From UHGV virus genome UHGV-0203085: a stretch of 13,007 nt of DNA; one strand, given 5' to 3'. How positions within the stretch are numbered: position 1 is the stretch's first letter; every line of letters starts with the position of its first letter. This document shows, piece after piece, positions 1,708 through 8,905 of the stretch. The translations under genes and the position numbers were made by a program. The notes beneath the pieces are model-generated. The model did no database searches, was not told the DNA's origin, and was given only the letters and a program-made list of their open reading frames with translations. The stretch is from a virus.

Positions 1708-1744
1708 TAAGTGAATAGTAACCTATTATGTTGGGGGCGTGCAA
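1708..1744 (-). promoter_or_regulatory. promoter-like element D (minus orientation): TTGCAC, 18 nt, TACTAT, then conserved TTCACTTA
   Basis: Minus-strand reading cTTGCACgcccccaacataataggtTACTATtcactta. It has 3 mismatches to the 28-bp core shared by elements A and B, and its downstream 21 bp (cgtttcgataagtgaatagta, plus 1700-1720) matches the window-end copy C with one mismatch. It lies about 20-50 nt upstream of the ATG at 1689. Confidence 0.4.
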
Positions 1745-2107: not shown

Positions 2108-2143
2108 TTGCACACCCCAATATAATAGGGTACTATTCAGTTA
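2108..2143 (+). promoter_or_regulatory. promoter-like element A: TTGCAC, 17 nt, TACTAT, then conserved TCAGTTA
   Basis: The 28-bp core ccaatataatagggtactattcagttaa is identical to element B. -35-like TTGCAC at 2108-2113, -10-like TACTAT at 2131-2136; an embedded TATAAT lies in the spacer. It is followed by AGGAGG and the ATG at 2162. Confidence 0.45.
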
Positions 2144-2435: not shown

Positions 2436-2897
2436 TCATTCTGGCTTCGTAACCTTCGCCGCTCTACTTACCACCTCTACACCATCGGCATCAGTAACTT
2501 TAACGAAGTATTCACCGACAGCATTAACCGTCAGAGAAAGAGTCTCTTCCGGGGCATTTACTACTTCCTTTCCGTCCTTGTACCAGGTCAGCACATACGG
2601 TGCTTTGCCTGCCTTAGCCTCGACAGTGATGATTGCGCTGCCGTCTGCCAGTTCCGTGTCTTTCGGTTGCACGGAGAAATACACGTCGCCCGCGTCCGCC
2701 AGATACGGAATTTCATAAAGCATACCCGCCGCCGGTAGTGCAATACCAGTTTTATCCGCAAACGGCATATCGTCTACTGGTGTACCGAGTACACTTTCAT
2801 CTTCAATAAATACCACATTCTCGCCGGAGCCAGACACGCGGGCGTACTGGACTACGCGACGCGACGGCACATCAGTTACTTTGAAAAATCCCATCAT
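2436..2897 (-). CDS. Ig-like (BIG-type) domain protein, 153 aa, probable virion-associated or decoration protein
   Basis: ATG 2895-2897 overlaps the TAA of the upstream head morphogenesis gene (TAATG coupling). C-terminal YVLTWYKDGKEVVNA...TLSLTVNAVGEYFVKVTDADG has the alternating pattern of an Ig-like beta sandwich. Confidence 0.6.
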   Translation of the reverse strand: MMGFFKVTDVPSRRVVQYARVSGSGENVVFIEDESVLGTPVDDMPFADKTGIALPAAGMLYEIPYLADAGDVYFSVQPKDTELADGSAIITVEAKAGKAPYVLTWYKDGKEVVNAPEETLSLTVNAVGEYFVKVTDADGVEVVSRAAKVTKPE

Positions 2898-4756
2898 TAT
2901 TCCCCTTTCAGATAATCAGCAACACGTTTATCGAGTTCCGCCATCTGCTTAAGTGTCAGCGGATTCCCGAAACCATCTACAGATATTACGCGAAACTCTT
3001 CCGGCGATATACCGCTGTTACGGAAAATCTTACCTCGCACCGGGCCGAGTGCTTCATCCACGAACCATGCCGGTTGTTGTTCAAGGAACTCGTAGTAAGT
3101 GGTGTCCGCGCTTACCTGAGTACCGCCGTCCGCACCCTTAGCTGCGCGTTTCGCTCCTTTATCGAGGAAGTCGAACTCTGAACTGATCACAGGCGCGGTT
3201 GTTGAGCGGCAGTTATGTGCTATAATTCCATTAGCAAGATACCAGTTCTGTTCATTTTCGAGGTTATAAACATGCCCGCAAAAATCAGCTTCACTAAAGA
3301 CCAAATCGACAACATCATCAAGCTCTACACCGACGGCATCGGACCAGTTGAAATCGGAAAGATTATCGGCGTTTCGTGTAGTCCAGTCATACGCGTTCTC
3401 AGAGAGAACGGCGTTACCATTCGCGGAGGCAGCGACGCTATGTTCATCCGAATGGCTAAAGCTACTCCCGAGGAGCGCCTCGCTCTCTCCGCCGCGGCGC
3501 ATGAAGCTGTCCGAGGGAGAAAGGCCGACCATGCTGAACTGCTTCGCAGAGCCAAAGCCAGGGAGGGAGTCATCAACGCCGGCAGTCACTGGGAGTTCCT
3601 TGTCAATGATTTGCTTATTCAGTCCGGACTTGACTTTATCCCAGGAAAGGCGGTCGACAAGTACAATCTCGACTTCGCCGTCGGTACCGTCGCCGTGGAA
3701 GTCTTCGGGGGAGGTTGGGCTTGTACTGACCGCCGCCGGATTGACCGTTACATTAGCCGCACTAAACAAATCGGAGAACTTGGCTACAACGTTGTGTTCC
3801 TTATGCTTGAGAGAGAGCGCAGAGTCCTTAGCGCACACGAGCTTGTCACCTACATTGAGAAGGCCGGAAGCAACCCAACCACTGGCGGTCAATACCTGGT
3901 GGTTTGGGGTGATAGACAAGGTGCGACCGGACTTTGTAGAGACATAGACTATAGTGCCTTTGTACGCCCGTTTAAAAATGTTAGAAACAGGGCTACCGGT
4001 AGATACTACAGTGTCCCCAAGTAAACAATTAGGGTGGGCCGGAGGCATCGGCCCTTTACCAATTTCCCACGTCATCCCGTCCCTGGCTCTGCAAATCGTA
4101 CTGGTACGACTATCAAGCGTTGACACCCACTCGTATTTCTCGATGATGTCGTCGTTCTGGCGGTACGTCTCGTTGCGGGCCTCGTTGGATACGTGAGCCA
4201 GCGCGGTGCGGATTACGGTAGCTGCATTACGTTCAGAGATGTCCGCCAGTCCACCAGCGCCTACGACATTCTTAACAATCTGCCGTGTCGTCTGGCCTTG
4301 GACAAAGCCCATCTTAACGCCGGTTACCAGGCGCGATACTTCTGTTTCACCCCAGCCCGACATCAGCTTAGTGAAGTCAACCGGCTTGTCGCTTAATGAT
4401 AAGGGTTGAAACTCGGCAGCGGCCCATACCTGTTCCGCGGTAGGCGTAATAAACTCGGCGTTAACGTTGGTGGCCAGCGTTTTTACGTTCCACTCTGCCT
4501 CATAAGCCGCCAGTTCTTTAAGGTCTTCTGTCAGTTTTGTTTGCCAGTCACCCGTAAGTCCCGCCAGTGCTTCTTCGAGGTCGCGTAACAGCTTATTTAG
4601 CCGCGCGGTACTACGACCGTCGTCGCCGAATAACAGCACCTGCCGTTTGATTTCGTCCCGCATCTCCTTAAGGAACGGCGCGAGGTCTTTCACTTCACCG
4701 GATGCGGTGCGTTGCAGCCATATCTGGTGGCTGATTAGAGATGTAAGTAAGCTCAT
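2897..4756 (-). CDS. head morphogenesis protein (Phage Mu F / SPP1 gp7-like) interrupted by an intein
   Basis: Long minus ORF; best start is ATG 4754-4756 with AGGAGGG 3-4 nt upstream (track ORF begins at TTG 4813 with no RBS). The N-extein ends ...WVSTLDSRTSTICRARDGMTWEIGKGPMPPAHPN, which I recall as the Mu F signature preceding HPNCRC. The gene lies directly downstream of the portal gene, as expected by synteny. Confidence 0.8.
   Translation of the reverse strand: MSLLTSLISHQIWLQRTASGEVKDLAPFLKEMRDEIKRQVLLFGDDGRSTARLNKLLRDLEEALAGLTGDWQTKLTEDLKELAAYEAEWNVKTLATNVNAEFITPTAEQVWAAAEFQPLSLSDKPVDFTKLMSGWGETEVSRLVTGVKMGFVQGQTTRQIVKNVVGAGGLADISERNAATVIRTALAHVSNEARNETYRQNDDIIEKYEWVSTLDSRTSTICRARDGMTWEIGKGPMPPAHPNCLLGDTVVSTGSPVSNIFKRAYKGTIVYVSTKSGRTLSITPNHQVLTASGWVASGLLNVGDKLVCAKDSALSLKHKEHNVVAKFSDLFSAANVTVNPAAVSTSPTSPEDFHGDGTDGEVEIVLVDRLSWDKVKSGLNKQIIDKELPVTAGVDDSLPGFGSAKQFSMVGLSPSDSFMRRGGESEALLGSSFSHSDEHSVAASANGNAVLSENAYDWTTRNADNLSDFNWSDAVGVELDDVVDLVFSEADFCGHVYNLENEQNWYLANGIIAHNCRSTTAPVISSEFDFLDKGAKRAAKGADGGTQVSADTTYYEFLEQQPAWFVDEALGPVRGKIFRNSGISPEEFRVISVDGFGNPLTLKQMAELDKRVADYLKGE
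3212..4027 (-). mobile_element. intein, 272 codons (Cys1 ... His-Asn, +1 Cys)
   Basis: In-frame insertion beginning CLLGDTVVS (block A; Cys codon = plus 4025-4027), with TLSITPNHQVLT (block B, T-x-x-H) and GWVASGLLNVGDKLV in the N-terminal Hint part. The C-terminal Hint part is ADFCGHVYNLENEQNWYLANGIIAHN, followed by +1 Cys (plus 3209-3211). The central region is S/A/D/G-rich with no LAGLIDADG, HNH or GIY-YIG motifs. Confidence 0.75.
3272..4024 (+). CDS. antisense-nested ORF, 250 aa: HTH plus DUF559/Vsr-like (PD-(D/E)xK-type) putative homing endonuclease
   Basis: ATG 3272 with GAGG about 8 nt upstream (an in-frame ATG at 3215 gives the 269-aa track ORF). N-terminal HTH-like IGPVEIGKIIGVSCSPVIRVLRENGV. 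Central block WEFLVNDLLIQSGLDF...YNLDFAVGTVAVEVFGGGW...RRRIDRYISRTKQIGELGYNVVFL matches the DUF559/Vsr pattern (D-F ... hEhDG.W ... R ... GY.V) as I remember it. The ORF is bounded by antisense stops at 3203-3205 and 4022-4024, so it spans the intein to within 2 codons. Confidence 0.55.
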   Translation: MPAKISFTKDQIDNIIKLYTDGIGPVEIGKIIGVSCSPVIRVLRENGVTIRGGSDAMFIRMAKATPEERLALSAAAHEAVRGRKADHAELLRRAKAREGVINAGSHWEFLVNDLLIQSGLDFIPGKAVDKYNLDFAVGTVAVEVFGGGWACTDRRRIDRYISRTKQIGELGYNVVFLMLERERRVLSAHELVTYIEKAGSNPTTGGQYLVVWGDRQGATGLCRDIDYSAFVRPFKNVRNRATGRYYSVPK

Positions 4757-4800
4757 AAGCCCTCCTGTAGTATCGCCAGTGTAACGCATAAAAATAATAT

Positions 4801-4836
4801 TTGCAGACACCAATATAATAGGGTACTATTCAGTTA
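4801..4836 (+). promoter_or_regulatory. promoter-like element B: TTGCAG, 17 nt, TACTAT, then conserved TCAGTTA
   Basis: The 28-bp core (4809-4836) is identical to element A. It lies in the divergent intergenic region between the head morphogenesis start (4756, minus) and the + ORF at 4861. Confidence 0.45.
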
Positions 4837-5016: not shown

Positions 5017-5180
5017 TGGCTGCGCTTGATTTTGAATATCACAACGGTTACGGCGGTCAAAACTTCTTCGGCGTAATTTGGTACGAAGATGGTACATGGT
5101 CTTCTCGCGGAGAATACGATGGTTCTGAATGGTGGGAATATAATGCCGTGCCAGATGTGCCAGGAGAACTTAAGCGCTAA
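5016..5180 (+). CDS. hypothetical small Gly/aromatic-rich protein, 54 aa (moron-like cassette B, second ORF; not in track)
   Basis: ATG 5016-5018 coupled to the upstream stop; translation MAALDFEYHNGYGGQNFFGVIWYEDGTWSSRGEYDGSEWWEYNAVPDVPGELKR; TAA 5178-5180 followed 4 nt later by a terminator hairpin. Confidence 0.45.
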   Translation: MAALDFEYHNGYGGQNFFGVIWYEDGTWSSRGEYDGSEWWEYNAVPDVPGELKR

Positions 5181-5184
5181 AATT

Positions 5185-5210
5185 AAGGCCCCTTTCGGGG
5201 CCTTTTCTTA
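5185..5210. terminator. bidirectional intrinsic terminator (stem AAGGCCCC / GGGGCCTT, loop TTTC)
   Basis: Same stem sequence as the terminator at 2412-2434. Followed by TTCTTA on the plus strand and by AATTTTA on the minus strand. It lies between the + cassette (stop 5180) and the portal stop (5208-5210). Confidence 0.6.
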
Positions 5211-6701
5211 TTGCTGCTGTTGGTCTTGTGGAGATTGTTCCTGTCTTGCTGTAGCAGGAATCTCCCCTGCCACCTGAGTGGCAGCACCTAACGGCAGCGG
5301 TGTATCCTCGATAGCGTTCTGAATATCCTCGTCAGTCCAGTCGGTTACTCCAGCTTTACGCAATGCCGCGTAGTAAGCGGTAGCCGGTAACAGGCCCGCG
5401 TTAATATCAGCCATCCACTGTGCGCGGTCCTGAGCGGTCATCGGTTGCAGGAAGAACTCCATGTTCAGCTTGAACTCAATTTCTGTGCCTTCACGCAACC
5501 CCAGCATAGCAGCCACCCAGCGCAACGCATCGGTATACGCCATGCTTACGTTACGTGCGATTGTTGCCATAACAGACGTATCGGCACCACGTTGCAGGCG
5601 GGCTGATTCAGCGGTTATTTGCTGTGTCGGGGTAATAAGCTGCGCCCCAATCTGGATCGCCTGATTCTCTTTATCCAGCATGTTCTGTTTGGCAAGGTTG
5701 TTCTCTCCTGCCTGAACCAGAAACGCATTGCCGCCGTAACCGATGTTATGACCTGAACGCGACCCCATGCGAACGCCGTGGGGGTTGGCTTCCGCCCACT
5801 GTTCCATGCTCATGTTCTCGCCCGGGGCGATGAACAGAGTGGGTTGACCTACAACGAAGCTGGACTCCTCATTGTCCGCGCTGTTGCGAAAATGCCCGAT
5901 ATTAAGCTCGGCCAACGGCAGCAAAGGCGCATCGTCAATGGTTGCATCGTTGTTGCTTGCCCCGATGAACGTGAACGGGATTTTGCCGCGTAACTGTTCG
6001 CCGAGTTCCGGGAATATCTCGATTACTTCGTCCTGAGCGCCACCTTCGGCATCGAAGCGGTAAATGCGCTGACGATAGCGATCTTCGATAATGTCAAGGA
6101 CGCGGTACTGTTCACCAAATTTTGTTTCGAACTCTGCGCCTGGTTCCGAATATTCCCATACCTCACGCAGCACGACCATTGTCACGCGGTTCACTGAACC
6201 GATACGGGTCAGGCGCCAGTTGATGATGTTCTCTGCGGTGTAAAACGCGATGACCGGGTTTAATAACCCCGCGTTCTGTTCTGCTGCCGTCGCTGCGGCT
6301 GTCTCCGGCGCATCCACCAGCAAGCCTCCACGCCCCACTGAGTCAATCTCCATCAGCGTATCCTGCGCGTGCTGCCACAGCCCGACACCAGAACCGTCTG
6401 CATTGCGTAACAGGTATTCCAGTTCAGGCGGGATAATCTGTTCAGGGTCTTTGCGCATCACCGACCCCACCATCCCCGCCAGGGTACGTTTAGTGAAGTT
6501 GTAGCAGATAGCGCCGTTTTCGTATTCTTCCTGGCGCTGTGCTGCGTAGACCGGGTCGGGTTCATTCTTCCCGACGTTGCGCAGGTAACGGATAAGGTCG
6601 CCTTCCAGAGCGTGGCGGACCTTCTGCCATTTATCGAAGTGATGCAGCCATTCCCGGTGTTTTGTCTTAACACCCTGATTCTGACCGTTCATAGTTAACA
6701 T
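5208..6701 (-). CDS. portal protein (putative), 497 aa
   Basis: ATG 6699-6701 with AAGAGGA 7 nt upstream; size and position immediately after the large terminase and before the Mu F-like gene fit the usual terS-terL-portal-MuF synteny. No motif-level confirmation is possible by eye. Confidence 0.65.
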   Translation of the reverse strand: MLTMNGQNQGVKTKHREWLHHFDKWQKVRHALEGDLIRYLRNVGKNEPDPVYAAQRQEEYENGAICYNFTKRTLAGMVGSVMRKDPEQIIPPELEYLLRNADGSGVGLWQHAQDTLMEIDSVGRGGLLVDAPETAAATAAEQNAGLLNPVIAFYTAENIINWRLTRIGSVNRVTMVVLREVWEYSEPGAEFETKFGEQYRVLDIIEDRYRQRIYRFDAEGGAQDEVIEIFPELGEQLRGKIPFTFIGASNNDATIDDAPLLPLAELNIGHFRNSADNEESSFVVGQPTLFIAPGENMSMEQWAEANPHGVRMGSRSGHNIGYGGNAFLVQAGENNLAKQNMLDKENQAIQIGAQLITPTQQITAESARLQRGADTSVMATIARNVSMAYTDALRWVAAMLGLREGTEIEFKLNMEFFLQPMTAQDRAQWMADINAGLLPATAYYAALRKAGVTDWTDEDIQNAIEDTPLPLGAATQVAGEIPATARQEQSPQDQQQQ

Positions 6702-6713
6702 TGAATAATCCTC

Positions 6714-7964
6714 TTAAAGTGCGAAAGTCACCGGGATGTTGATTACTGGTTTAACCACCGGCATCTCATAAACTACAGGATAGCCGAGAGCATCCGCCAT
6801 ATGGTCGATGATGCCGTCTTTAGCTGGCTCTCCGTTATCGTCGTATGCCTGCTGCTCCAGCGTCTTCGCTATCTCAGGGCATAAGTGGTCGTTAACCCAC
6901 AGCTTACCTTTTTCCAGTGCGGTATTCACGGCTAAAACACGGTCTTTAACCGGAGGGTTGGCGGATTTAGCGCGAACATCGAACCCGGCCTGCTGGAGTA
7001 ATGCAATATCAGAGATTGACGCTGAGTTGGTTTTGCGGTTCTTGCCGCTGGCGTCAGGGTAGACGACAATACGGTGTCCTTGCGACTTCCACTTCTCGTT
7101 AATTACACGCACGGTGTCCGGCGTATCGAACAGGCCTTTCAGTTCTGCTACCGCGTGCCAGCCGTCTTTACGTTGCACATACACGGCGCTTGCGTTCTTC
7201 GTAACGTTGAAGTCCTGCCCGATGTACAGTGTGTCACCAGGTTGAATTGTCTCTTTGCTGCGGTGCTTACGTCGGTCATAGGCGTAATACACGCTGCCGG
7301 ATGTCAGGTTGACGAACTCACCATTAAGATACGCGTTAATCAGTTGCGCCGGGTAAGTCTCGGTCAGTGAGCTGATGTAATCCTGCGGCAGGAATCGCGC
7401 ATTCTCGTGTGTGGAAGCCTGCACCATCGAGTAACTCGGCGTCGGATTCTCTTTGAACTTGGCGTAGACGAACTTGAACCCTTCCGGCGTCGTGGTGACA
7501 GAGATGTGGTTAATTACACCTGGTATAACCAGACGCATACGGGCTACGATTTTGTTCCACGCCAGCTCAGCTTTCTCGCGGCTCAATACGTCCAGCTCAT
7601 CCACGACCGCAGCCGCGATTTTGAAGCCGACTATCGAGCCGGGGTTATCCATCGAGCGGCAGATAACAGTTCCGAGCACCGTCTTACCGCGAGTAACCAC
7701 GACTTCTTTGTCGCCGGATTTAACCAGCACATCAAGGCCGAGGAGGTTAGCCGCTTCCTCGAATGTAGGGTAGAAGATGTCGCGGATAGCCGGGTATGTC
7801 GGACCGAAGTAGCCCAGGCGCGTACCTGGGTGCTTGAGTATAAACGTAAGCAGGTCCAGGCAGCCAACAAATGTCTTACCACTACCGAAGCCCCCGACAT
7901 AGGCCTTGTATTTGTTATCGCAATTCAGGAACAGTGCCTGTGGTGCGGATAGCTGAATACTCAT
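6714..7964 (-). CDS. terL: terminase large subunit, 416 aa
   Basis: Walker A ATPase motif YVGGFGSGKT near the N-terminus (residues about 23-32); ATG 7962-7964 overlaps the stop of the upstream gene (ATGA); followed by the portal gene. Confidence 0.85.
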   Translation of the reverse strand: MSIQLSAPQALFLNCDNKYKAYVGGFGSGKTFVGCLDLLTFILKHPGTRLGYFGPTYPAIRDIFYPTFEEAANLLGLDVLVKSGDKEVVVTRGKTVLGTVICRSMDNPGSIVGFKIAAAVVDELDVLSREKAELAWNKIVARMRLVIPGVINHISVTTTPEGFKFVYAKFKENPTPSYSMVQASTHENARFLPQDYISSLTETYPAQLINAYLNGEFVNLTSGSVYYAYDRRKHRSKETIQPGDTLYIGQDFNVTKNASAVYVQRKDGWHAVAELKGLFDTPDTVRVINEKWKSQGHRIVVYPDASGKNRKTNSASISDIALLQQAGFDVRAKSANPPVKDRVLAVNTALEKGKLWVNDHLCPEIAKTLEQQAYDDNGEPAKDGIIDHMADALGYPVVYEMPVVKPVINIPVTFAL

Positions 7965-8506
7965 TCCTCCACCTCGCCCATGTTCGTTGTTACGATTTTA
8001 CCTACAGGCTCCGCAACACTGAAAATAATCTCAGTAGGTGCTGTTTCTTCTGTCGATTCAACTGGTTTCTCTTTTCCGAGGCCCAGCTTCGCGGCAGCAA
8101 ACGTAGCGGAGATGCCAGCGGCCCCCGTCTCGGTGAAATAGGCCTCTTCCAGAGCCTGTGCTGTCTCCCAGGCTTCTGCAAATGCGGGAATCTCGCGCAG
8201 CCACAGCTTAATAATCGGGATAGTGACGCCGATGTGTAGAGCAAAGCGGGCCAGTGATGGTGGCTTATCCTGAATCAGCGGGCGTTCATCGCCCTTAGAC
8301 GTAGGCACAAGCTCCCACGACGTGCGGTCGAAGAACTCGATTAATTCGTCGCAATAGTCCGGGTCCCACAACGCGGCGGAATTACGGGATGATTGATAAA
8401 GGCTCTGTTTACCGCGCGGTCGTCTACGGCGACGGTTTGCGCTAACAGCTTCTTCATGTGCAGCTTGCACCACCTCTGGCGATGGCTGCTTGAGTTTCAG
8501 CTTCAT
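7961..8506 (-). CDS. terS: terminase small subunit (putative), about 181 aa
   Basis: Immediately upstream of and translationally coupled to terL. Best start is ATG 8504-8506 with AAGGGGA 4-5 nt upstream (track ORF starts at GTG 8545). Basic N-terminal region (RRRRRPRGK) and a helical core are consistent with a small terminase; assignment is mainly by position. Confidence 0.5.
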   Translation of the reverse strand: MKLKLKQPSPEVVQAAHEEAVSANRRRRRPRGKQSLYQSSRNSAALWDPDYCDELIEFFDRTSWELVPTSKGDERPLIQDKPPSLARFALHIGVTIPIIKLWLREIPAFAEAWETAQALEEAYFTETGAAGISATFAAAKLGLGKEKPVESTEETAPTEIIFSVAEPVGKIVTTNMGEVEE

Positions 8507-8523
8507 AGAATCCCCTTGCATAT

Positions 8524-8579
8524 GCGTCTGACCATCAGAGCGCACCAGACGCGCCCTACGCGTCTAAATGGATTATATA
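8524..8579 (-). promoter_or_regulatory. terS leader: TATATAAT box (no -35) followed by two mutually exclusive GC-rich hairpins
   Basis: Minus strand reads cccttaTATATAATccatttAGACGCGtagggCGCGTCTGgtgcgctctgatggtCAGACGCatatgcaaggggattctATG. The heptamer GCGTCTG/CAGACGC occurs at plus 8524-8530, 8546-8552 and 8559-8565, allowing hairpin 8547-8565 or hairpin 8524-8552. Confidence 0.3.
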
Positions 8580-8600
8580 AGGGGATTGGGAGGGATGTAC

Positions 8601-8623
8601 AGAAAAGCCCTCCGTAGAGGGCT
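8601..8623 (-). terminator. intrinsic terminator for the minus-strand operon (stem AGCCCTC / GAGGGCT, loop CGTA, then UUUUCU)
   Basis: 7-bp stem at 8606-8612 and 8617-8623; on the minus strand it is followed by TTTTCT (plus 8600-8605). Located after the last small minus-strand ORF and before the terS leader. Confidence 0.55.
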
Positions 8624-8725
8624 TGTATCAGTTATATAGGCCGTGTCGTGGTGCTCTCTTACCGTCGCCGCCGTAATGGTCATTAGCTACGGCGATAGCC
8701 CAGGCGTTAGGGATGATTAGTAGTC

Positions 8726-8905
8726 TCATTTTAAGTATCTCAACAGGGCATCAGCGATACCCGATGTTACCAGGCCAAAAAACATAGGCCACCAGATGTA
8801 TCTGGGTAGATTGGTAAATGTTTCTGGCTTAGACCAGAAAGCCATTAAAAACGCGAACCAAAACACCATATAACTAATGTTGCTAAGTAATTCTAAAATA
8901 CTCAT
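8726..8905 (-). CDS. small hydrophobic membrane protein, 59 aa (not in track)
   Basis: ATG 8903-8905 overlaps the TGA of the upstream gene (ATGA); AGAGGAGA 7 nt upstream; translation MSILELLSNISYMVFWFAFLMAFWSKPETFTNLPRYIWWPMFFGLVTSGIADALLRYLK has two hydrophobic segments. Confidence 0.4.
   Translation of the reverse strand: MSILELLSNISYMVFWFAFLMAFWSKPETFTNLPRYIWWPMFFGLVTSGIADALLRYLK

Follow-up and report, generated by a model that had tools for sequence, protein, structure and literature searches.

The short stretch of DNA ahead of terS, the gene for the small terminase subunit, is analyzed here in the viral genome UHGV-0203085; the whole of the sequence studied, 13,007 nucleotides (nt), is called the window below. 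For the 1.4 kb round this terS leader, matching sequence (60-95% identity) is present in 276 phage records, almost all of them from Escherichia or Salmonella siphophages of the Guernseyvirinae (Kagunavirus, Jerseyvirus), and on this resemblance the source phage is a Kagunavirus-like siphophage of the Guernseyvirinae. The genes round the leader all lie on the minus strand, with small genes and an endolysin upstream of terS. Read along that strand, the region consists of a terminator, a sigma-70-type promoter, two hairpins termed HP1 and HP2, a free Shine-Dalgarno sequence and the terS ATG, which together make up the region controlling the packaging operon, terS-terL-portal. Its features are as follows.

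8600-8624, minus strand: intrinsic terminator, with stem AAGCCCTC (8624-8617) / GAGGGCTT (8612-8605), an exact inverted repeat of 8 base pairs (bp), loop TACG, then TTTTCT
8596-8601, minus strand: -35-like hexamer TGTACA, 18 nt upstream of the -10 hexamer, with 4 of 6 consensus matches
8572-8577, minus strand: -10 hexamer TATAAT (the last six bases of TATATAAT)
8566-8587, minus strand: possible anti-Shine-Dalgarno-like segments, AATCCCCTTATATA (8587-8574) and TATAATCCATTT (8577-8566), complementary to the Shine-Dalgarno/ATG region, which only read-through RNA would contain
8565, minus strand: predicted transcription start, an A 7 nt past the -10 hexamer, placed from the usual -10 to +1 spacing
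8546-8566, minus strand: HP1, stem U-AGACGCG-U / G-CGCGUCU-G, seven Watson-Crick pairs between two U.G pairs, triloop AGG
8522-8545, minus strand: HP2, GUGCG-C-UCUGA-UGG-UCAGA-CGCAU, with 5 lower bp, a 1-nt bulge, 5 upper bp and the triloop UGG
8511-8517, minus strand: Shine-Dalgarno sequence AAGGGGA, unpaired in the leader folds
8504-8506, minus strand: terS start codon ATG, whose methionine is aligned with position 1 of the PHROG 3064 profile
7961-8506, minus strand: terS, 181 amino acids, phrog_3064 terminase (E = 8.6e-73), with a stop codon overlapping the terL start

A preliminary description of this DNA had pointed to a -10 box and three copies of a GC-rich heptamer in a regulatory terS leader just past the operon terminator, the repeats forming RNA structure, and that much stands. 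All the minus-strand strings are where it placed them: TATATAAT at 8579-8572, AGACGCG at 8565-8559, TAGGG at 8558-8554, CGCGTCTG at 8553-8546 and, 15 nt further on, CAGACGC at 8530-8524, as well as the terminator, whose arms span 8624-8605 before TTTTCT. The observation is real and biologically meaningful but was parsed wrongly, since the three heptamers are the two arms of HP1 and the 3' arm of HP2. The HP1 stem, 8-9 bp long, holds the first and middle copies. The third copy, which had been taken for an alternative partner of the middle one, lies in the 3' strand of a separate 10-bp hairpin, HP2, that had been missed.

Leaders were gathered from 50 IMG/VR loci, from GenBank entries of Jerseyvirus, Cornellvirus, phiEap-2, Hafnia TS33, Pantoea AH01 and Klebsiella VLCpiS11a, from further viral contigs and from Dhillonvirus, and 27 distinct Guernseyvirinae leaders were aligned with MAFFT (alignment A1). 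This alignment and a hand-curated table were used because a model-based realignment (A3) misplaced the 2-nt bulge of the Cornellvirus-type HP2. When the RNA is folded from 8566, HP1 and HP2 make up both the minimum-energy and the centroid structure (-24.2 kcal/mol), with the Shine-Dalgarno sequence and the AUG unpaired. The two-hairpin fold is also the minimum-energy structure in seven of the eight lineages folded independently, and the Shine-Dalgarno sequence is left unpaired by the minimum-energy fold in seven of eight. The RNAalifold consensus of A1 contains HP1 and HP2 and no other structure. The hairpins are separated by only 0-2 nt; about 4 nt of single strand then lead to the Shine-Dalgarno sequence, and HP2 and the ATG are 21 nt apart in total. 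No U-tract follows either HP1 or HP2.

The main argument for these hairpins comes from their variation among relatives. On the two-hairpin structure, 97.8% of the 459 cells of A1 are paired, to be compared with a shuffle mean of 92.7% (none of 500 shuffles reaches the observed value), and slid controls pair at 15-57%. In 19 cells both sides have changed, again a value reached by 0 of 500 shuffles. HP1 cells are 97.4% paired, with changes such as G-C to U.G, C-G to U.G and A-U to G.U, and HP2 cells are 98.1% paired. The clearest single case is found in the upper stem of HP2, which reads UCUGA/UCAGA in Kagunavirus and UAUGA/UCAUA in all other Guernseyvirinae, a C-G to A-U replacement; at the pair concerned in A1 (42-52), 15 sequences have C-G, 11 have A-U and one has G-C. 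More distant members show further versions of the same stem, namely UGUGG/UCACA (Pantoea), ACCGA/UCGGU (locus L267), GCCGA/UCGGC (Dhillonvirus) and GCGUA/UACGC (Klebsiella VLCpiS11a), all of them with the triloop UGG, which is CGG in locus L268. The HP1 stem goes from AGACGCG/CGCGUCU in the window to AGGUGCG/CGCGUCU, with two G.U pairs, in Cornellvirus, to AGAUGGC/GCCGUCU or AGGUGGU/GCCACCU in Dhillonvirus and to GUGGCCC/GGGCCGC in VLCpiS11a; it differs in L267, Dhillonvirus and VLCpiS11a yet still pairs, and its loop is AGG or UGG throughout. The third HP1 pair provides a recurrent example, its A having become G independently in a Kagunavirus, in a Jerseyvirus-type leader and in Cornellvirus.

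This pattern extends far beyond the closest relatives. Among 14 lineage representatives including Dhillonvirus, 96% of the stem cells hold canonical pairs, a single position showing as many as five pair types, and VLCpiS11a has wholly different stem sequences in the same architecture. This architecture is retained even where identity between the TerS proteins is down to 32-36% (about 90 residues aligned). Between Kagunavirus and Jerseyvirus the hairpin region of A1 is 84% identical, versus 51-57% at the third codon positions of terS in the same genomes, and on this comparison it is under purifying selection. As far as these alignments tell, the two hairpins are conserved across hundreds of related phages, and what is conserved in the stems is structure rather than sequence, the loops being conserved as well. 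The covariation across related phages for which the preliminary description had called is thus found for HP1 and HP2, but not for the helix between the middle and third heptamer copies.

Heptamer counts are less telling. AGACGCG occurs four times in the window against 2.0 expected, a count equalled by 31 of 200 shuffles, and CAGACGC six times against 1.9 (0 of 200 shuffles), with its copies scattered over the window. Such counts alone are weak evidence, and it is conservation which shows that the element exceeds chance. A covariance model of HP1 and HP2 (R1), run with filters off, detects the element once in the window and once in the complete 42.6-kb genome of the relative EF2-1, at terS in both and nowhere else. 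A perfect 10-bp palindrome, AGACGCGTCT, reuses the HP1 heptamer at 736-745 of the window, where the covariance model gives no match. Scanning 8400-8750 against Rfam (release 15) at E values up to 10 returned three chance-level hits (E = 0.32-7.8), none of them on the hairpins. With no Rfam match and no mention in the literature searched, the HP1-HP2 motif appears to be undescribed. A pattern tried on metagenomes, AGGGSGYGN{10,14}TGRTGGTCA, was too degenerate and was dropped: the matches listed were due to chance, R1 fitting none of the 100 loci searched and leader-like context being seen in none of at least 120 stretches.

The sequences that precede the hairpins have a similarly conserved layout. 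The terminator at 8600-8624 ends the upstream operon of small and lysis genes. Its stem is GCCCGC/GCGGGC in Jerseyvirus and Cornellvirus, through a compensatory T-A to G-C change, and AGCCCGCC/GGTGGGCT in Dhillonvirus, and a T-tract follows the stem in every lineage compared. As for the promoter, it had been described as lacking a recognizable -35 element and as possibly dependent on an activator. A promoter scan gives TGTACA-18 nt-TATAAT 10 of 12 matches to the sigma-70 consensus, and TGTACA is invariant in Kagunavirus and Jerseyvirus although the 18-nt spacer diverges. The -35-like sequence TTGCC(T/A) stands at 17 bp, with unrelated spacers, in Cornellvirus, phiEap-2, Pantoea-type and Klebsiella phages, and TTGCTA at 17 nt in Hafnia. 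Dhillonvirus has an extended -10 element, TGnTATAAT, kept despite a 14-nt change in its distance to the terminator. No lineage examined therefore lacks both a TGn extended -10 element and a hexamer of -35 type at 17-18 bp, which removes the grounds for postulating an activator. In the -10 box itself, positions 1, 2, 4, 5 and 6 are invariant among the 27 distinct leaders and only position 3 varies (TACAAT in Jerseyvirus); the box is also kept in Dhillonvirus, VLCpiS11a and Vibrio phage NF. By all these signs the terS promoter is an ordinary one of the host sigma-70 type. Vibrio phage NF has the same arrangement of a terminator and an extended -10 element (TGnTATAAT) but an unstructured leader, so that the hairpins mark the Guernseyvirinae and Dhillonvirus clade specifically.

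Despite these three promoter architectures, the base of HP1 lies 5-9 nt past the -10 box in all lineages. Transcripts made with sigma-70 usually begin 6-8 nt past the -10 box, and a start at the usual distance, which is only predicted here, would leave 0-2 unpaired nt before HP1. HP1 probably forms, from this spacing, the 5' end of the terS-terL-portal mRNA.

The leader also has to be distinguished from coding sequence. In public records (L026, L035, L044, L134 and L140, for example) terS often begins 39-45 nt too early, at an (A/G)TG within HP2, and several records are linearized at that codon. An extended TerS or a leader peptide starting from the GTG at 8545 was considered and rejected: this frame is broken in Hafnia TS33 by a frameshift, in Pantoea AH01 by ATG TAG and in SE1 by TGA. 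It is out of frame in Dhillonvirus and kept in Kagunavirus, Jerseyvirus, St162 and phiEap-2, and all the substitutions in it are non-synonymous. A purine-rich Shine-Dalgarno sequence (GGGGA, GAGGA, GGAGA or AAGGG) is found in all lineages 4-9 nt before the ATG equivalent to that at 8506. The comparison indicates that this ATG is the true terS start and that the upstream (A/G)TG within HP2 is not a conserved start. The terS start of many records would accordingly have to be moved from HP2 to the ATG.

The explanation that we prefer, with a probability of roughly 0.6, is that the sigma-70-type promoter and the two adjacent conserved RNA hairpins constitute the 5' leader of the packaging operon and that the hairpins act at the RNA level. 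Transcripts of the upstream operon would end at the intrinsic terminator, and host RNA polymerase with sigma-70 would start immediately after it, the new transcript probably beginning at about A8565, at the foot of HP1. HP1 and then HP2 would fold independently, side by side, followed by the exposed Shine-Dalgarno sequence and the terS ATG. Most likely, the 5'-terminal structure would protect the packaging mRNA from 5'-end-dependent decay, and the hairpins would hold the ribosome-binding site in a defined open context and so set the level of terminase and portal synthesis. Because both loops are strictly conserved, some factor may recognize them as well.

Such an arrangement has well-known counterparts. 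The 5' untranslated region of Escherichia coli ompA, 133 nt long, has two hairpins (hp1 and hp2) before the ribosome-binding site, and the leader of phage T7 gene 10 is likewise stabilizing. The protective role of 5'-terminal stem-loops was reportedly described by Emory, Bouvet and Belasco in 1992 and by Arnold, Yu and Belasco in 1998. Stem-loops of this type leave at most about 2-4 nt unpaired at the 5' end of the mRNA. The terS leader resembles the ompA and T7 gene 10 leaders in having a hairpin at, or within a couple of nt of, the predicted 5' end, then a second hairpin before a single-stranded ribosome-binding site, and in serving genes whose dosage matters. It differs from that of ompA in being shorter (about 60 versus 133 nt), in its conserved loops and in showing no sequence similarity; the start and the effect on half-life are only predicted here.

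Several observations weigh against this interpretation. The folding z-scores of single sequences are modest, -1.7 to -2.5 in most lineages. The minimum-energy fold of Cornellvirus St162 departs from the consensus, and HP1 is degenerate in Pantoea-type leaders, with 4-5 bp. Many of the aligned sequences come from close relatives, so that cell counts overstate the number of independent events. The loops AGG and UGG are nearly invariant, which a pure 5' stabilizer does not need and which hints at a more specific function. Finally, the literature yielded no transcription start, transcriptome, RNA half-life or probing data for Guernseyvirinae or Dhillonvirus.

Other explanations have been considered for the same element. 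The preliminary description proposed mutually exclusive hairpins, in which the middle heptamer pairs with either the first or the third copy and thereby toggles transcription or terS translation. Both 7-bp pairings are indeed exact in the window (entries I9 and I10 of the repeat finder), and some 6 nt separate the third copy from the Shine-Dalgarno sequence. The alternative fold is, however, 8.3 kcal/mol less stable when imposed as a constraint (-14.8 versus -23.1 kcal/mol), and its pair probabilities are 0.0, which leaves it practically absent from the ensemble. At the center of its helix, pair 32-52 is broken by a C.U mismatch in 12 of the 27 leaders, which cover all lineages except Kagunavirus; no pair has changed on both sides, the percentage paired equals the shuffle mean, and the third copy has its own covarying partner within HP2. 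With no U-tract after either hairpin and the Shine-Dalgarno sequence free in both states, a switch or attenuator is hardly credible. The same description had also suggested a terminase-binding site. In several phages (SPP1, lambda) pac or cosB sites lie directly upstream of terS, as this element does, and palindromic elements in this place could be bound as DNA by the small terminase, with the first headful cut made nearby. The element is unique in the genome and conserved along with the terS-terL module in headful-packaging phages, and several public records begin within or beside it, all of which fits a pac site. Against this, the stems change freely as long as pairing is kept, whereas a double-stranded DNA site would be expected to conserve its bases. 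Among non-Watson-Crick cells, 32 are G.U pairs valid on the terS sense strand only, mismatched on the other strand, versus five on the antisense strand only; this asymmetry, together with stems that drift while remaining complementary, points to HP1 and HP2 acting as transcribed RNA and not as a palindrome read by a protein in double-stranded DNA. Bulged arms of 5 bp would not extrude as cruciforms, and lineages with TerS proteins only 32% identical still have 76-82% identity in the leader. Record starts were rejected as physical ends since they coincide with the annotated upstream ATG, with the TATAAT box or with the convention of placing terS first. Published PhageTerm analyses of relatives report permuted, headful genomes without defined or mapped ends, and no description of pac sites was found for these phages in the literature. 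The terS leader is thus like SPP1 pacL/pacR and lambda cosB in occurring once, directly before the gene for the small terminase subunit, and in being conserved with the terminase module, and unlike them in conserving base pairing of one strand, G.U pairs included, and in that no ends map to it in published data. A pac site is very unlikely on this balance. A resemblance between the HP1 apex of Cornellvirus, GGTGCGCAGGGC, and the 12-nt cohesive end reported for phage Chi, GGTGCGCAGAGC (11 of 12 positions), was set aside as chance: the Chi cos site adjoins helix-turn-helix and primase genes, with no HP2-like element and no terS nearby.

Two further possibilities concern the RNA itself. The triloop hairpins could be a platform recognized by a translational repressor or activator of host or phage, or by RNA polymerase as in the put sites of HK022. 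The near-invariance of the loops AGG (HP1) and UGG (HP2) while the stems drift speaks for this, and two adjacent stem-loops, 0-2 nt apart and early in the transcript, recall put RNA; put, itself a pair of adjacent stem-loops, and lambda nut are likewise cis-acting structured RNAs near the start of a phage operon. But no candidate factor is at hand. The element is about 45 nt long versus about 70 nt for put, and each genome contains just one, while in HK022 two operons carry put sites. The first strong terminator past portal appears to close the operon, the next genes having their own promoter-like motif, so that there is no terminator to cross within it and read-through is not obviously needed. 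With one copy only and an operon so bounded, a put-like role in antitermination is disfavored. No Rfam family matches, and a boxA-like string is not conserved: a lambda-type nut boxA (resembling CGCUCUUA) was rejected because CGCUCUGA occurs only in Kagunavirus, within the covarying HP2 stem, is replaced elsewhere by CGCUAUGA or CGUUAUGA, and is absent in Dhillonvirus. A binding platform remains unlikely. The other possibility is fold-back inhibition, in which pyrimidine-rich bases of the promoter would bury the terS ribosome-binding site in read-through RNA, terS and terL being translated only from RNA of their own promoter. It would supplement the structured-leader explanation, not replace it, and as such a supplement it has a minor but real chance. 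The complementary bases are those of the -10 box and just after it (TATAATCC...), and in Kagunavirus also a copy in the spacer, AATCCCCTT. In the window they form a 14-nt inverted repeat (I2), 86% complementary, and a 161-nt read-through RNA folds with its Shine-Dalgarno sequence sequestered (-54.9 kcal/mol, z = -4.3). The helix concerned, P0, is 82.4% paired versus 44-52% in slid controls, with changes on both sides in four pairs and 12 cells (0 of 500 shuffles reach the 12). In Jerseyvirus the change from TATAAT to TACAAT coincides with one from ATT(A/C)TA to ATTG(T/C)A, an 8-9-bp complementarity is also present in Dhillonvirus and VLCpiS11a, and cognate duplexes beat non-cognate ones (permutation p = 0.03). 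The duplex is strong in Jerseyvirus, SE1, phiEap-2, Hafnia, Dhillonvirus, VLCpiS11a and the majority variant of Kagunavirus. In 5 of 13 lineages, the CCATTT variant of the window itself among them, it is nevertheless weak, at -2 to -6 kcal/mol not exceeding shuffled sequences. Composition accounts for much of the P0 pairing, the shuffle mean being already 79.6% because one strand is pyrimidine-rich and the other purine-rich. Four of the 12 P0 pairs are invariant and hence uninformative, the Kagunavirus spacer copy varies (ATCACC, ATCCAC, ATACCC) without compensating change, RNAalifold does not predict the helix, and the -10 box and the AT-rich spacer between the Shine-Dalgarno sequence and the ATG are each constrained for other reasons. 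The precedent is IS10/Tn10, for which Davis, Simons and Kleckner are said to have described, in 1985, how fold-back inhibition acts on the ribosome-binding site of the transposase when transcripts read through from outside. There, as proposed for terS, sequence upstream of the element's own start complements a ribosome-binding site and only entering transcripts can form the inhibitory helix; the terS version would differ in varying by lineage, in its weakness and in having a 5' arm that overlaps the -10 box itself. A bolder proposal joins the two, with an undescribed clade-wide cis-regulatory RNA in Guernseyvirinae and Dhillonvirus whose loops are read by a specific factor, of host or phage, setting when or how much terminase and portal protein is made, in concert with the anti-Shine-Dalgarno sequence hidden in the promoter, which would silence transcripts coming in from the operon before it; it is tentative, and we would not expect it to hold.

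Few phages of Salmonella and E. coli are isolated as often for use in therapy and food biocontrol as those of Guernseyvirinae and Dhillonvirus, and we know of no work on the timing or dosage of their packaging enzymes. A single, strongly conserved structured leader before terS-terL-portal offers a testable regulatory handle, which could be used for tuning terminase expression or building reporters. The element is of a familiar kind, a promoter with a structured 5' untranslated region, and the gain lies in a well-supported new RNA motif rather than in a new mechanism.

The operon served by the leader is bounded by a terminator at each end. In EF2-1, a close relative with full annotation, terS, terL and portal come after a set of small genes, two holins, a lysin and NinH-like genes on the same strand. 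In the window, the downstream part of the operon comprises the following features.

6714-7964, minus strand: terL
5208-6701, minus strand: portal
5177-5204, minus strand: GC-rich terminator-like hairpin AAGGCCCC-GAAA-GGGGCCTT, then AATTTTAG / AAUUUUAG, directly 3' of the portal stop codon, noted from the sequence and from a terminator scan of the opposite strand

The hairpin at 5177-5204 probably marks, from its sequence and position, the 3' end of the terS-terL-portal transcript. Ahead of the gene after portal stands another motif, 20 nt long and repeated (4832-4813), and in view of both features the leader most likely serves terS-terL-portal only. Near-identical GC-rich hairpins made of AAGGCCCC, a loop and GGGGCCTT are present at 5185-5204 and 2412-2432, T-rich on both sides, which gives them the look of bidirectional terminators. 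One follows portal and the other a Hoc-like decoration gene, and each is followed by a gap with short open reading frames on either strand.

The 20-nt motif, TGAATAGTACCCTATTATAT, is distinct from the terS promoter. It occurs in the window at 4813-4832 (minus strand), 2120-2139 (minus strand) and 1712-1731 (plus strand), and in locus L141 at 14176, 25696, 4456, 6047 and 846. With 0-3 mismatches it precedes several gene blocks (head morphogenesis; spanin, scaffold and coat; tail chaperone), for a chance expectation of none. It matches the motif tgAATAGTa-ccTATTat-T reported from a PHIRE search for Kagunavirus fBC-Eco01 and assigned there to a phage RNA polymerase. The annotated relative shows no gene for such a polymerase, and the motif is for this reason more likely to be a phage-specific class of promoter or operator for the host polymerase.

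The Mu-F-like head-morphogenesis protein (2897-4813, minus strand) has 638 amino acids here versus 347 in EF2-1, with a Pfam Intein_splicing domain at residues 271-534. From this domain and the extra length, its gene has been interrupted by an intein, as reported for the related phage Snoke.

Probable traces of recombination are also visible round the leader. Similarity between the relatives L011, L018, L023, L006 and L025 and positions 8625-8700 of the window stops exactly at the upstream edge of the terminator, and the small genes that precede it differ from phage to phage, so that the terminator-promoter-leader block looks like a mosaic boundary. In Salmonella phage SE126_1PISJ (L126), a promoter and spacer of Kagunavirus type (TATAAT, ATCCCCTT) are joined to hairpins and a terS of Jerseyvirus type, and by this combination the phage appears to be a recombinant with its junction within the leader.

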